NCBI GenBank assembly: GCA_045660785.1
Contig: JAZREL010000036.1
Location: forward strand, 18,897 to 82,896
DNA length: 64,000 nucleotides
Direction: 5' to 3'
Source of the DNA: Eubacteriales bacterium
GTDB lineage: Bacteria > Bacillota > Clostridia > Oscillospirales > CAG-272
Shown: piece by piece, positions 16,186 to 26,605 of the stretch
Position numbering within the stretch: position 1 is the stretch's first letter
How the letters are laid out: every line of letters starts with the position of its first letter
Notes under the pieces: model-generated
What the model saw: the letters and a program-made list of their open reading frames with translations, nothing else
What the model was told of the DNA's origin: nothing
Databases searched by the model: none
Position numbers and translations under genes: made by a program

Positions 16186-16289
16186 CACGGCGAAGCCGTG
16201 TATATCATCACCGTAGGTGCATATCATCACACGAAGTGTGCATATCATCAGGTCTATGCCCTATATCATTACTTTGAAAATGTGTATAT
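16186..16289. repeat. Hairpin/TATATCAT-linker array A (mutS-mutL intergenic)
   Basis: CACGGC-GAA-GCCGTG, CACC-GTA-GGTG, CACAC-GAA-GTGTG and degenerate units separated by (T/C)ATATCAT. Confidence 0.85.
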
Positions 16290-22129: not shown

Positions 22130-24376
22130 TTAAATTTCTATTTTAAGCTGTGGATCCTTGGGCTTTTTCTTGGAAATAAGCACCCCTGTGGCCGGAATTT
22201 TGATTTTTCTGTACATTTCCTTTGCCTCGGGATATTTCTTTTGATAGTCCGTCAGAACCTTCTTAATTTTTTGATTTTTCTTTAGATTCATCGCAAAAAC
22301 AACCGTGCCCTGAGAGGTCCTTGTCGTTTTTATCGGAATCAGTGAGGGTCTTATTAAAATCGCCTTGTTTTCAGAGTTTATAAGCATAATATATTCATCG
22401 CTCGTTTCATAAACGATTTTAACAATATTAGATGCGTCAGAATATGCCTTTTTAAGCTTTTTTCGGGCACCCTGTGTCTGATATTGGCTCATTGGCACTC
22501 TAACCGCCTTGCCGTTTTCAAAGAAGAAAATGACGTTTTGGCTCTCGTCGTAAGACGGATTTATATGCATATATGCAACCTTTTCATCCTCGTCAAAATT
22601 AAGCTTCTTTGGAACGTAAACACCAAGCTCAGACGCCTTAGAAAGCTCGAAATCGGACATTTTGGCGAAGTAGAGCTGTGCCTTGTCAGTAAAGAAGATT
22701 ACCTCGTCCTTGTTGCTGATTTCCGCCTCGTAGATTATTTCGTCATCCTCTTTTATCTTTTGCTCGCTATTGCCGCGAAGTGATTGCTGAGTGATTTTTT
22801 TGAGATAGCCGTCCTTTGTAAAGAAGAGCCATGCCTGATAATCCTCAATCATAATCTCCTTGTTAAATTCCTTAACGCTTTCAGATGCGATAACCTCGGT
22901 TTTTCTTGGCTTGCCGTATTTTTTCTTAACGTCGCCAAGCTGCTTTATCATAAATGATTTCATTTTAAGCTCGTCACCGAGAAGCGCTTTTATGTCTGCA
23001 ATTTCTGTCTGGAGGTTGTCTATATCGGAAAGACGATTCATAATATACTCGCGGTTTAAGTGACGGAGCTTGATGTCAGCGATGTACTCTGCTTGATCCT
23101 TATCAACGAGGAAGCCCGCCATAAGGTTTGGCACAACCTCATCATCCTTTTCCGTTTCGCGTACGATTTTAACCGCCTTGTCAATATCAAGTAAGATTTT
23201 GCCAAGACCGAGAAGCAAGTGAAGCCGTCTTTGCTTCTTTTCAAGGTCAAAGGTGAATTCGCGGCGCAGACAGCTTGTCCTAAACTTAATCCACTCGCTA
23301 AGTATTTCCTTGATGCCGAGCTGCTTAGGTGAGCCGTCAACCAATACGTTGAAGTTGCAGGGGAAGTTGTCCTCAAGTGGGGTAAACTTATAAAGCTTTT
23401 GCATGAGCTGCTCAGGGTCTGTGCCCTTGCGAAGATCAATTGCAAGCTTAAAGCCGTCAAAGTCGATTTCATCACGGAAATCAACGATTTCCTTGAGCTT
23501 TCCTGCCTTGAACATATCCGCCATTTCCTTCATTATCGCTTCGATAGTGGTGGAATACGGAATTTCAACGATTTCTATGCAGTTTGAATCCTTGTCATAT
23601 TTATATTTTGCGCGGAGCTTGATAGGTCCCTTTCCCGTTTCGTAAACCTTTTTCATTTGCTCTCTGTCGTAAACGACGTAGCCACCGCCCGGGAAGTCGG
23701 GTGCTTTTACGATATCGAGAATCTTTTCAATATCGGTCCTCGGTGAGCGAAGCAGAGCAATTGTCGCATCGCATATTTCAATTAGGTTGAACGAGCAAAT
23801 TGATGATGCAAGTCCAACGGCGATGCCAAGGTTTGGTGAAACCAAGATGTTTGGGAACGAGGTTGGAAGCAAGCGTGGCTCCTTCATTGTGCCATCGTAG
23901 TTATCAACCATATCAACCGCGTTTTTATCAATGCCTGTGAAAATTTCTTGACAGAAGGTGTCAAGCTTTGCCTCGGTATATCTCGATGCGGCAAACGCCA
24001 TATCGCGGCTATATTGCTTACCGAAGCCACCCTTTGAGTCAACAAACGGGTGAAGTAGGGACTCATTACCTGTGGTTAAACGAACCATTGTTTCGTAAAT
24101 TGCCATATCGCCGTGAGGATTCAGCTTCATCGTTTCACCAACGATATTCGCACTCTTGGTACGTCTGCCTGTCAACAGTCCCATTTTATACATAGTATAA
24201 AGGAGCTTACGGTGTGATGGCTTAAATCCGTCAATTTCGGGAATTGCACGCGAAACCATAACGCTCACCGCGTATGGCATATAGTTTGTTTCGATGGTTT
24301 CGGTTATCGGTTGAACAACCGGCTCTCTTTCGACGTAAGCTTCCACCTTGGCTTCTGCTTTTTTACTTCTCGCCAT
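22130..24376 (-). CDS. parC: Type IIA topoisomerase subunit A, ParC-like
   Basis: SRAIPEIDGFKP, PHGD, AASRYTEA catalytic Tyr, APDFPGGG; no QxRGGxG GyrA box seen. Confidence 0.8.
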   Translation of the reverse strand: MARSKKAEAKVEAYVEREPVVQPITETIETNYMPYAVSVMVSRAIPEIDGFKPSHRKLLYTMYKMGLLTGRRTKSANIVGETMKLNPHGDMAIYETMVRLTTGNESLLHPFVDSKGGFGKQYSRDMAFAASRYTEAKLDTFCQEIFTGIDKNAVDMVDNYDGTMKEPRLLPTSFPNILVSPNLGIAVGLASSICSFNLIEICDATIALLRSPRTDIEKILDIVKAPDFPGGGYVVYDREQMKKVYETGKGPIKLRAKYKYDKDSNCIEIVEIPYSTTIEAIMKEMADMFKAGKLKEIVDFRDEIDFDGFKLAIDLRKGTDPEQLMQKLYKFTPLEDNFPCNFNVLVDGSPKQLGIKEILSEWIKFRTSCLRREFTFDLEKKQRRLHLLLGLGKILLDIDKAVKIVRETEKDDEVVPNLMAGFLVDKDQAEYIADIKLRHLNREYIMNRLSDIDNLQTEIADIKALLGDELKMKSFMIKQLGDVKKKYGKPRKTEVIASESVKEFNKEIMIEDYQAWLFFTKDGYLKKITQQSLRGNSEQKIKEDDEIIYEAEISNKDEVIFFTDKAQLYFAKMSDFELSKASELGVYVPKKLNFDEDEKVAYMHINPSYDESQNVIFFFENGKAVRVPMSQYQTQGARKKLKKAYSDASNIVKIVYETSDEYIMLINSENKAILIRPSLIPIKTTRTSQGTVVFAMNLKKNQKIKKVLTDYQKKYPEAKEMYRKIKIPATGVLISKKKPKDPQLKIEI

Positions 24377-25403
24377 TTTTACCTCCTATTATTCTATGCG
24401 CGCAAGCGCGTATCATTCTGTTGTATATCGCTAAGGATTCGCCGTCGTCGCCCGGTAGGTGGGCGTAAACGGTGTCAGCGCCTAAATCATCCGCTTGTCT
24501 AAGCAGGTCAAAAAGACGCTTTGTCTGTTCCTTAACGTCTTGCTTTTTGCCAACGGGCAAAAGCTTTTCACAATTAAGATAAGGAATTTCCTCATCGTAA
24601 CACATAATTGCCGTGTTTTCGCACCTTTGCTTTTCCCTTGCAAATTCTATAAAGTCGATATAGCTATCGTCAATTAGATATAAGGATGCCGTAGGAGCGT
24701 AGTGCTTATATTTCATACCCGGGGAAAGCGCGACCTCGCCCGCCTTTAATTCATTTTTAACCGCACTTGCGATTTCAACGTCACAAACAGTCGAGAGCAT
24801 TTCGGGAGTAACCGAGCCGGGACGAAGAATTGTGATTTTGTCATCACTTAACGAGATAACGGTTGATTCAACACCGAATTTTGATGAGCCACCGTCCAAA
24901 ATCATTGGAATTTTGCCGTTTAGGTCATTATAAACGTGTTGTGCTGACGTTGGGGACGGCTTGCCCGATGCATTTGCACTTGGTGCGGCAATTGGCACAC
25001 CTGCCGATACAATAAGCGCTCTTGCAATTTCATTTTCAGGGCACCTTATAGCAACCGTATCAAGTCCACCTGTTGCCTCGGGCGGAATTATTTCCTTTTT
25101 AGGTAAAATTACCGTCAATGGGCCAGGCATAAACCTTTTTGCAAGCTCGTAGTAAAGAGGGCACGTATATGCAATACCCTCTGCCTCGCTTGGCTCACTT
25201 ATATGTACTATAAGTGGGTTGTCGCTCGGTCTGCCCTTTGCGACGAAAACGCTTTTGCACGCTTCAGCGTCGTAGGCGTTTGCACCAAGACCGTAAACAG
25301 TTTCGGTTGGGAAAGCAACGAGGTTTCCTGATTTTATAAGCTTGCCTGCTTCATTTAAAATATCAACTGACTTGACTGTAACCTTATAAAGCTTGGTTTC
25401 CAT
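24363..25403 (-). CDS. sua5: Threonylcarbamoyl-AMP synthase (Sua5)
   Basis: VAFPTETVYGLGA, KGRPSDNPLIVH, APSAN, PGMKYKHYAP. Confidence 0.95.
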   Translation of the reverse strand: METKLYKVTVKSVDILNEAGKLIKSGNLVAFPTETVYGLGANAYDAEACKSVFVAKGRPSDNPLIVHISEPSEAEGIAYTCPLYYELAKRFMPGPLTVILPKKEIIPPEATGGLDTVAIRCPENEIARALIVSAGVPIAAPSANASGKPSPTSAQHVYNDLNGKIPMILDGGSSKFGVESTVISLSDDKITILRPGSVTPEMLSTVCDVEIASAVKNELKAGEVALSPGMKYKHYAPTASLYLIDDSYIDFIEFAREKQRCENTAIMCYDEEIPYLNCEKLLPVGKKQDVKEQTKRLFDLLRQADDLGADTVYAHLPGDDGESLAIYNRMIRACAHRIIGGKNGEK

Positions 25404-25425
25404 TCGCTCTCCTTTCCCTTTACAT

Positions 25426-25534
25426 CACGGCACCGCCGTGTATATCATCAGGGCTTTGCCCTGTATATCACCAATCCGCAGGATTGTATATCATCACGCA
25501 AAGCGTGTATATCATCAACGCATCGCGTTGTATC
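25426..25534. repeat. Hairpin/TATATCAT-linker array B (prfA-sua5 intergenic)
   Basis: Five perfect triloop hairpins at 25426-40, 25449-63, 25472-86, 25495-507 and 25516-30, separated by TATATCA(T/C). Confidence 0.92.
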
Positions 25535-26605
25535 TTACGCTTGTGTTTCGCCCTTTAATTTTTCAGCGGCATCTGCCGTTGCGAGCTTATCAAGCATATC
25601 GCCGATATCGCCGTTTAAGAACGCTTCAAGTGAATATATGGTATAGCCGATACGGTGGTCGGTAACTCTGCCCTGCGGGTAGTTATAGGTTCTGATTCTT
25701 TCGCTACGGTCACCTGTACCAACCTGGCTCTTACGCTCTGATGCGATTTTATCGTTTTGCTCCTGCTGCTTTATATCGTAAAGCTTAGCGCGCAAAATCT
25801 TAAATGCCTTGTCCTTGTTCTTAAATTGGCTTCTTTCGTCCTGACATTCAACAACAATTCCCGTTGGCTTGTGAATAAGACGAATCGCACTTTCAGTTTT
25901 GTTTACGTGCTGTCCGCCTGCGCCGCTTGATTTGCAGGTTTCAACTGTAACGTCACCCATATTGAGCTCAACCTCGACGTCCTCCGCCTCGGGAAGCACG
26001 GCAACTGTTGCGGTTGAGGTATGAATTCTGCCCTGCGTTTCGGTTTCTGGAACCCTTTGAACGCGGTGAACGCCGCTTTCAAACTTAAAGCGCGAATATG
26101 CGCCCTCTCCCGAAATTAAGAAGGTAACCTCCTTAAAGCCGCCAAGGCCTGTTTCATTAACACCGGTCAGCTCTGTTTTGAAGCCGTTTGAGTCTGCATA
26201 CATTGAATACATACGGTAAAGCACGGAGGCAAAAAGTGCCGCCTCCTCACCGCCGGCTCCGGCTCTGATTTCAACGACAACGTTTTTGTCGTCGTTAGGG
26301 TCCTTTGGAATAAGAAGGAATTTTAATTCCTCCTCAATAACGGCAATTCTTTCCTTGCATTCCTTATATTCAATTACTGCAAGGTCGTACATTTCTCCGC
26401 TTTCCTCGTCCATCATAAGCTTTGCGCCCTCGAGGTCATCCTGAGTTTTTTTGTATTCACGGTATTTTTCAATTATTGGTGTGAGGGATTTATATTCCTT
26501 CATCGCCTTTGTAAATTCCGCTTGGTTAGAAGCGGTTTCGGGGTTGGCAAGCGCTTCCTCAATTTCAAGGTAGCGCTTTTCCGCCTCGTTTAATCTATTA
26601 AGCAT
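25535..26605 (-). CDS. prfA: Peptide chain release factor 1
   Basis: PET tripeptide (VPETE), GAGGQHVN, ERIRTYNYPQ. Confidence 0.97.
   Translation of the reverse strand: MLNRLNEAEKRYLEIEEALANPETASNQAEFTKAMKEYKSLTPIIEKYREYKKTQDDLEGAKLMMDEESGEMYDLAVIEYKECKERIAVIEEELKFLLIPKDPNDDKNVVVEIRAGAGGEEAALFASVLYRMYSMYADSNGFKTELTGVNETGLGGFKEVTFLISGEGAYSRFKFESGVHRVQRVPETETQGRIHTSTATVAVLPEAEDVEVELNMGDVTVETCKSSGAGGQHVNKTESAIRLIHKPTGIVVECQDERSQFKNKDKAFKILRAKLYDIKQQEQNDKIASERKSQVGTGDRSERIRTYNYPQGRVTDHRIGYTIYSLEAFLNGDIGDMLDKLATADAAEKLKGETQA

Follow-up and report, generated by a model that had tools for sequence, protein, structure and literature searches.

The stretch of DNA analysed here, hereafter the window, comprises 64,000 nt of an Eubacteriales assembly and corresponds to C36:18897-82896 of the source genome, G000 (1.94 Mb in 76 contigs, 82% complete, 42.8% G+C); other G numbers denote compared genomes, C a contig and L a fetched locus. 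The genes prfA and sua5 lie on the minus strand of the window, separated by a spacer of 131 nt (25404-25534) that is filled, from the prfA stop codon up to the sua5 ribosome-binding site (RBS), by an array of five short hairpins (Table 1). On the plus strand the hairpins occupy positions 25426-25530, are 13-15 nt long with five different stems, and are joined by TATATCA(T/C); as prfA and sua5 are on the minus strand, the linker reads AUGAUAUA in the mRNA. In the mRNA, the prfA stop UAA is followed by GAUA, by five units that each combine a hairpin with (A/G)UGAUAUA, by AUGUAAAGGGAAAGGAGAGCGA and by the sua5 AUG. All five stems pair perfectly, open with CA/TG, close the loop with a C-G pair and carry a loop of 3 nt, and the period of the array is 23, 23, 23 and 21 nt. 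A preliminary description of this sequence had reported the five hairpins and their joints, which proved exact, with coordinates and linkers confirmed; its statement that the spacer is filled from the prfA stop to the sua5 RBS was borne out by open reading frame (ORF) coordinates and Pfam domains.

Table 1. Features of the prfA-sua5 junction, in mRNA order, and of the second array (window positions; hairpins and linkers named in the mRNA sense)
Feature	Positions	Strand	Plus-strand reading	Basis or remark
prfA (peptide chain release factor 1)	25535-26605	-		Pfam PCRF 2.2e-73, RF-1 7.2e-43; stop TAA is the reverse complement of 25535-25537
Whole hairpin-linker array	25421-25534	-		5 hairpins, 4 full linkers, partial linkers at both ends (GAUA following the prfA stop; AUGUA ahead of the RBS)
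Hairpin 1, CAACGC-gau-GCGUUG	25516-25530	-	CAACGC-atc-GCGTTG	Sequence and fold
Linker AUGAUAUA	25508-25515	-	TATATCAT	Sequence
Hairpin 2, CACGC-uuu-GCGUG	25495-25507	-	CACGC-aaa-GCGTG	Sequence and fold
Linker AUGAUAUA	25487-25494	-	TATATCAT	Sequence
Hairpin 3, CAAUCC-ugc-GGAUUG	25472-25486	-	CAATCC-gca-GGATTG	Sequence and fold
Linker GUGAUAUA	25464-25471	-	TATATCAC	Sequence
Hairpin 4, CAGGGC-aaa-GCCCUG	25449-25463	-	CAGGGC-ttt-GCCCTG	Sequence and fold
Linker AUGAUAUA	25441-25448	-	TATATCAT	Sequence
Hairpin 5 (terminal), CACGGC-ggu-GCCGUG	25426-25440	-	CACGGC-acc-GCCGTG	Same stem ends the mutS-mutL array and the C70:8646-8723 array
sua5 RBS, GGAAAGGAGA	25409-25418	-		Intact; unpaired in the predicted fold
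sua5 / tsaC-type threonylcarbamoyl-AMP synthase	24363-25403	-		Pfam Sua5_yciO_yrdC 5.5e-57, Sua5_C 8.8e-27
Second AUGAUAUA-type array, three to four units	16199-16269	-		Between ORFs read as mutS and mutL from N-terminal sequence only

The repetition of the linker in the window is not due to chance. The 12-mer TGTATATCATCA, made up of the linker and the adjoining stem feet, was found seven times with at most one mismatch, against 0.25 expected, and none of 100 shuffles reached seven. Four of these copies lie in the prfA-sua5 array and three in the second array (16199-16250), which runs in the same direction as its genes and whose terminal stem is CACGGC...GCCGTG, as in the prfA-sua5 array. Fold prediction for the RNA of the prfA-sua5 array gave five hairpins independent of one another (-44 kcal/mol, z = -3.0), a result equalled by 1 of 200 shuffles. 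No terminator-like site was found in 25404-25534, where each hairpin is followed by AUGAUAUA and no U run, and promoter-like matches at the array were not above chance (4 vs 1.7 +/- 1.3 expected). A search of public sequencing runs listed no RNA run, and DNA runs with small shares (0.05-0.06). Several candidate identities of the array were rejected: a coding repeat, as the period varies between 21 and 23 nt and each linker contains a UGA stop; a terminator array, as U runs are missing; and the archaeal C/D-box small RNA (sRNA) families sR2 and sR14, whose 11-14 bits in the Rfam comparison were taken as a chance match to UGAUGA within the linker. Iterons or phased double-stranded DNA sites are no more than conceivable, as nothing was found in their favour.

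The proposal in the preliminary description that structure, rather than stem sequence, is maintained was upheld by the covariation of the stems. Eighteen units were picked from the window and 19 loci solely by the presence of two linkers (at most one mismatch each) 15 nt apart, and were aligned without gaps. In this set, 97.2% of 108 cells were paired compared with 70.8% in shuffles, both sides had changed in five of the six stem pairs, and the covariation score was 0.705 compared with 0.154, with none of 500 shuffles as high; controls in which the alignment was slid had 21-57% of cells paired. Across G000, a hairpin of at least four Watson-Crick pairs was present in 149 of 186 inter-linker segments (140 perfect, 9 with one mismatch) and absent from the other 37. 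These hairpins are 11-22 nt long, with a C-G loop-closing pair in 128 of the 149. Of their 119 triloops, read in the sense of the linker, 38 are TNC and 2 are GNA. Twenty-five distinct stems were counted in 36 perfect AUGAUAUA-type units and 30 in 95 perfect units with the linker AUGAAUU. The 747 stem pairs comprised 738 Watson-Crick pairs, 2 G.T, 3 A.C/C.A and 4 others. The 2 G.T and 3 A.C/C.A pairs, together with four mismatches in the gene-associated cassette arrays described below, are too few to tell from wobble pairs which strand is under selection. The rarity of mismatches and the strand polarity of the loops are explained by perfect DNA palindromes no less readily than by selection at the RNA level.

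The array is a non-random, structure-preserving repeat of the type of Gut-1 (RF01706), the Rfam consensus of which consists of three hairpins with covarying stems joined by GUGAAAU. Both defining traits of Gut-1 were found at prfA-sua5, namely at least three consecutive short hairpins with variable, covarying stems and a conserved single-stranded linker of the form (R)UGA(A/U)AU, here (A/G)UGAUAUA. The Gut-1 model aligned with the array from end to end (model positions 1-77) but with a score of 21.6 bits (E = 0.17 over 1 kb, 0.078 over the genome), which is below the gathering cut-off of 50 bits. Elsewhere in G000 the cut-off was exceeded at C70:8946-9020 (67.1 bits) and C33:21003-21077 (57.7 bits), with 25 further matches below it, and in a hybrid array at C70 UGAUAUA units pass straight into UGAAAUA units. 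The seed rows of Gut-1 (PMC2864571) contain GUGAUAU, AUGAAAU, GUGAGAU and GUGAAAU linkers and CUUCG, CUUUG and CUGCG loops. As the layout had already been named, with GUGAUAU linkers in the seed, the prfA-sua5 array represents a described motif in a variant that differs in linker and stem foot. The preliminary description, which knew of no named family with this layout, was mistaken on that point; its own test, a match in Rfam, came out positive for the layout and negative for the prfA-sua5 copy itself, which remains under the family cut-off. Gut-1 was rated as an RNA ('Y'), as not cis-regulatory ('n') and as confined to the human gut by Weinberg et al. 2010 (Genome Biol 11:R31, PMC2864571). 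A literature search for Gut-1 or RF01706 returned only this 2010 description and an unrelated methods paper of 2026, with no function reported for Gut-1.

The best Gut-1 match of G000 is included in a 375-bp block (C70:8646-9020; L011 445-821) of four arrays in alternating orientation, with UGAUAUA and UGAAAUA linkers, beside a tRNA gene. At C2:2960-3133, where the model scored 31 bits, there are GGTGAGTTTGCTCTGTGTGCG-like tandem repeats of about 21 nt without hairpins, which may be a coding repeat.

Arrays of this kind are dispersed over G000, where they occur within operons, in both orientations, in clusters and as inverted pairs; the linker 12-mer (at most one mismatch) is present in 69 copies at 29 loci. 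To be listed, an array needed either three or more linkers and pairing in no fewer than half of its segments, or two linkers around a stem of at least 5 bp. The curated list contains 55 arrays, of which 21 have the linker AUGAUAUA, 28 AUGAAUU and 6 GUGAAAU. At least three linker types thus share a single layout in this genome, AUGAUAUA being combined with CA...UG hairpins and AUGAAUU with G...C hairpins, and small groups with GUGAUAU and GUGAAGYU linkers were also seen. AUGAAUU arrays reach 15 hairpins each, and internal duplicated blocks are present in long arrays. Nearly all 55 arrays are intergenic, lying between ORFs. No orientation bias relative to genes was detected against crude ORF calls from which tRNA genes were left out, 19 of the 32 arrays between co-directional ORFs running with the genes and 13 against them. 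Neither target-site duplications nor conserved flanks were seen at the G000 arrays, the ends of which are partial linkers. A looser scan for the 7-mer with any hairpin gave 788 matches vs 604 in the control and was dropped as too noisy, as were two-linker chains; arrays with at least three linkers were used instead. A strict scan for chains of perfect hairpins yielded just 24 arrays, because a single imperfect unit breaks the chain. At C76:60460-60628 the 6-mer CCTTGG occurs eight times at 16-30-nt spacing.

Within the genus, the prfA-sua5 array arose by insertion or growth in a single sub-lineage, and its units turn over quickly. In 22 of 24 congeneric species the spacer is 0-29 nt long and holds the RBS alone, the same kind of RBS standing right after the prfA stop in these array-less relatives; an array was found only in G012 (four units, AUGAUAUA linkers) and G014 (five units, with the linkers AUUCCAUA or AUUUCAUA, that is AUUYCAUA). 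Among five prfA-sua5 loci from other families, three lacked an array, one was incomplete and one had an 830-nt spacer that was not read. The stems CAACGC, CACGC, CAGGGC and CACGG[C/T] are common to G000, G012 and G014 at this site, while their order and loops differ; an orthologous stem was kept with a changed loop in CAACGC-gau- of G000 vs CAACGC-aag- of G012, and in one stem a pair has changed on both sides, from C-G to U-A (CACGGC...GCCGTG vs CACGGT...ACCGTG). The AUUYCAUA linker gave 20 matches across the genome of G014 and none in the control, compared with 1 in G000 and 3 in G012; G014 also has 74 matches of the main linker type, and the two types are mixed within arrays. The mutS-mutL array was found in G000 and G014 (five units) and not in G012, G017 or G010, and shows an arm change on both sides (CACC...GGTG vs CAACC...GGTTG). 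As G012 has the array at prfA-sua5 and lacks it at mutS-mutL, presence and absence vary locus by locus. With arrays dispersed in G000 and unit numbers differing between species, the modular repeat envisaged in the preliminary description is supported. The mutS-mutL junction of G020 (L079, G020:C5) carries another small element, made of two adjoining hairpins (CCTCC...GGAGG and then TGTCGCG...CGCGACG) followed by GAGGGATT, and in G014 (L077, G014:C5) this two-hairpin element stands beside the hairpin-linker array.

The arrays are associated with one particular gene family, PF05635. It comprises the 23S rRNA intervening sequence (IVS) proteins and Avd, the accessory protein of diversity-generating retroelements (DGRs), which are four-helix-bundle pentamers; it is a large family with, to our knowledge, no role established outside DGR Avd. 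Exactly two PF05635 genes are present in the G000 assembly, each just downstream of an inverted array pair. The gene at C28:753-1100 encodes a protein of 115 aa (Pfam 1.3e-18; PDB 2RLD, an entry with five chains, E = 4e-18), and the arrays upstream of it have CATATCAT / TATATCAT linkers followed by ATGATATA linkers, the same type as in the prfA-sua5 array. The gene on C18, the protein of which is 50% identical to that of C28, lies downstream of GTGATATA / CATATCAC arrays. The prfA-sua5 array therefore has the same linker as a cassette in the same genome (C28), but is a single-orientation array with no PF05635 gene of its own. The G000 assembly, which is 82% complete, yielded no reverse transcriptase. 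A literature search brought up no published link between PF05635 and hairpin-linker arrays; the published passages available to us note the family near CRISPR-cas loci.

Within the genus, 45 of 50 genomes, and all 23 of high quality, carry one to seven PF05635 copies, and 71 such loci, C28 included, were fetched. A 6-mer recurring at least three times at 6-32-nt spacing was found upstream (420 nt in one batch, up to 470 nt in the other) in 66 of the 71 and at least four times in 41, against backgrounds of 24.6% and 3.6%, respectively, for 1557 ORFs of G000 (420 nt). By eye, an array was recognised upstream in 70 of 70 loci with upstream sequence, the one other locus being cut at a contig end; about three quarters were of the hairpin and linker kind, mostly as inverted pairs, and about one quarter were bare tandem heptamers. 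AUGAAUU and UGAAAU cassettes occur in sister species and were not found in the G000 assembly. A tree was built from 66 PF05635 proteins, four of fewer than 100 aa having been left out and linker classes having been assigned by eye beforehand. On this tree the 16 linker classes require 15 changes, which is the minimum, whereas the 10 shuffles printed required 44-49; each class is monophyletic. In a tree of the first batch, all 22 proteins of the hairpin type group in a single clade that excludes the heptamer types.

Further observations were made at loci of this kind. Bare heptamers stand upstream of the gene at L047-L050, L055, L057, L068, L073, L074, L086, L088-L091, L100 and L105, which make up one part of the PF05635 tree; examples are NGCTGAC (eight times), GGRTATA (seven times), TGCAGAA and TTCGGAA (four times each), and some of these heptamers resemble the short tandemly repeated repetitive (STRR) heptamers of cyanobacteria. 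At L083 (G012:C48) it is the array pair upstream of a PF05635 gene, with the linkers GTTATGA / TCATAAC, that is duplicated in tandem. In G000, inverted array pairs without a gene follow tRNA genes at C50:146-291 and C75:26542-26685 (L008, L012). Both are followed by a near-consensus promoter TTTACA-17-TGGTATAAT, after which C50 has a 95-aa ORF without a Pfam match, as though another gene had filled the gene slot of the cassette.

The unit formed by arrays and gene is a cassette of about 0.6 kb that is common to species and families at unrelated sites. Two species share only a stretch of 591 bp (94.4% identical), which consists of the arrays and the gene, while the flanks are unrelated, with different tRNA genes and terminators upstream. 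For comparison between families, 400 other genomes were sampled across the order; the resulting figures are descriptive, as relatives are not independent. Orthologues of the C28 protein with 81-90% identity were found in 22 of the 400 genomes, from 11 families, whereas the identity of PrfA between families is just 58-62%. The double-linker pattern of the AUGAUAUA-type family was present in 51 of the 400 genomes and 13 of 30 families, with one control match in all, and in 18 of the 22 genomes with a C28 orthologue compared with 33 of the 378 others. Positions of arrays and gene alike were listed for nine genomes, in all of which the arrays precede the gene at a distance of at most about 120 nt.

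Given these observations, we think it likely that the prfA-sua5 array is a solo, gene-less copy of a dispersed Gut-1-type repeat rather than a regulatory element peculiar to prfA and sua5. The unit of the repeat is the constant 8-nt linker AUGAUAUA (in the mRNA) and, after it, a short perfect hairpin, the stem of which may vary freely as long as it remains paired. Solo arrays would be offshoots of cassette arrays and could spread or expand via recombination or slippage between identical linkers, and the private stems may serve to avoid mispairing between units and to present the identical linkers unpaired and at regular intervals. Recognition would then be of the linker, with the four-helix-bundle protein of the cassette as its most plausible partner. 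At prfA-sua5 the array may be a tolerated passenger, presumably co-transcribed with the operon as five stable hairpins, which at most would add some protection from exonucleases or loosen translational coupling.

Several points weigh against this interpretation. With 21.6 bits against a cut-off of 50, the prfA-sua5 array is at best a candidate for strict membership in RF01706. The stems stay perfect although neutral sites between these species are probably saturated, which suggests some constraint, and the copy may accordingly be more than a passenger. Linkage by itself would make linker and protein congruent; the congruence shows that cassettes stay intact, and does not prove that the protein recognises, or even touches, the linker. 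A promoter-like TTGAAT-17-TGTGATATAAT lies between the C28 arrays and their gene, so that the arrays there may be outside the transcript of the gene. AUGAAUU, the commonest type in G000 (28 arrays), is without a PF05635 cassette in the 82%-complete assembly. Finally, the 33 genomes with AUGAUAUA-type arrays but no close C28 orthologue indicate that arrays persist without a cognate gene, at least in assemblies.

A more far-reaching proposal, which we put forward tentatively and consider less probable than its negation, is that the linker is the address in a two-part system, in which each PF05635 clade recognises its own 7-8-nt linker and solo arrays are sites acted upon in trans. The linker would be displayed single-stranded and in register between private hairpins or, in older clades, as bare heptamers, and the cassette would spread between gut Clostridia. 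If the proposal were true, solo arrays would be decoys, loading sites or propagation footprints of the PF05635 protein, and a first function would be given both to the orphan Gut-1 motif and to the orphan PF05635 family.

The passenger interpretation has to be set against four others. The preliminary description had suggested an mRNA processing or stability element within the operon, and the position of the array, on the mRNA strand exactly between stop codon and RBS with the RBS left free in the fold, would suit a module that has been selected here to process or stabilise the mRNA or to uncouple translation, as would the like placement of the second array between mutS and mutL and the conservation of stems across species while loops change. 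Such a dedicated cis element is nevertheless quite improbable, since 22 of the 24 congeneric species have nothing but the RBS in a spacer of 0-29 nt; moreover, the same units occur at dozens of unrelated intergenic places, 19 of the 32 arrays between co-directional ORFs running with the genes and 13 against them. Species that have the array at the orthologous site differ in their units and even in the linker, and neither a terminator nor an excess of promoter-like matches over chance was seen. A free-standing sRNA gene, for example a sponge offering single-stranded linkers to an RNA-binding protein, appears the least probable of the four. CsrB-type sponges are built of repeated single-stranded motifs between hairpins, as are these arrays, and the Rfam type of Gut-1 is 'Gene; sRNA', in keeping with the rating as a non-cis-regulatory RNA by Weinberg et al. 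(PMC2864571). The prfA-sua5 copy, however, stands inside an operon and lacks a promoter or terminator of its own, the arrays of the genome are in mixed orientation to neighbouring genes, and the near absence of G.U pairs would be unusual for stems selected only as RNA.

Two further explanations place the element at the level of DNA. A repetitive extragenic palindromic (REP) element or bacterial interspersed mosaic element (BIME), mobilised on single-stranded DNA by a Y1 transposase of the HUH or REP-associated tyrosine transposase (RAYT) type that recognises hairpin foot and linker, would account for intergenic and intra-operon positions, both orientations, clusters and inverted pairs, and for stems that are perfect DNA palindromes (2 G.T against 738 Watson-Crick pairs). 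It would also suit the polarity of the loops, as TNC in the sense of the linker (38 of 119) is GNA on the other strand and, in DNA, GNA loops with a C-G closing pair are highly stable. The assembly includes a single Y1_Tnp gene (C19:1621-2379), which accounts for the only PF01797 match (C19:2011-2343), but arrays are absent from the 600 nt to each side of it. REP stems, moreover, are conserved in sequence, in palindromes that are imperfect and about 20-40 nt long, whereas here they vary (25 distinct stems in 36 units, hairpins of 11-22 nt), and the consistent neighbour is PF05635, which we do not know as a transposase. An HUH/RAYT mobiliser, one of the neighbours that the preliminary description suggested looking for, is accordingly a poor candidate, and we give the explanation as a whole little credence. 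A selfish DNA minisatellite, with palindromes kept by intrastrand template switching, growth by linker slippage and neither function nor protein partner, is slightly less improbable, though still unlikely. It would fit the near absence of wobble pairs, the symmetric changes in both arms (those of CACC...GGTG vs CAACC...GGTTG and CACGGC...GCCGTG vs CACGGT...ACCGTG), the duplicated blocks inside long arrays and the arrays in genomes without a close PF05635 orthologue, but it leaves unexplained why arrays stand upstream of 66 of 71 PF05635 genes, why there is one protein clade per linker class and why the linker is constant across families.

Since its description in 2010, Gut-1 has remained an orphan motif of Rfam; its layout is that of a modular, mobile repeat with many linker 'dialects'. 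Arrays of this type can settle in essential operons without displacing the RBS, and their units stay perfect palindromes while all else about them changes. The tie to PF05635 opens both orphans to simple binding and reporter assays. Unless additional evidence is at hand, such arrays should not be annotated as sRNA genes, as CRISPR-like arrays or as regulators of particular genes.

The arrays can be compared with several known systems. As in clustered regularly interspaced short palindromic repeats (CRISPR), constant and variable segments alternate regularly, but the constant part is an unstructured linker of 8 nt and the variable part a palindrome of 13-15 nt taken from a limited common repertoire (25 stems in 36 units) and not a unique spacer; repeats of 23-50 nt with unique spacers of similar length were not found, as the stems recur between arrays. 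The preliminary description's phrase of a reversed CRISPR layout was apt, the constant linker being unstructured and the variable part palindromic. REP and BIME sequences of E. coli and Pseudomonas, which are associated with RAYT, often form inverted pairs, lie in operons after stop codons and vary in unit number between strains. The present arrays resemble them as short palindromic intergenic repeats that are single, clustered or in inverted pairs, occur in operons and vary in unit number; REP stems, however, are conserved and about 35 nt long, whereas here the stem varies, the linker is constant and no RAYT-like gene is flanked by arrays. As with the IVS ORFs of 23S rRNA genes, a PF05635 gene travels with structured repeats by stable-RNA genes, here those of tRNAs; unlike the IVS ORFs, the gene does not lie within an rRNA gene, and, unlike with DGR Avd, a search of the 82%-complete G000 assembly gave no reverse transcriptase. 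With Gut-1 itself the arrays share consecutive short hairpins with covarying stems, a conserved single-stranded linker of 7-8 nt with the core (R)UGA(A/U)AU and loops that are often C-UNC-G. In contrast to the three units of Gut-1, the prfA-sua5 array has five, with the linker AUGAUAUA and stems that are always CA...UG; and whereas Gut-1 is described in Rfam as a stand-alone sRNA from human-gut metagenomes, it is met here as a dispersed repeat, within operons and in both orientations.

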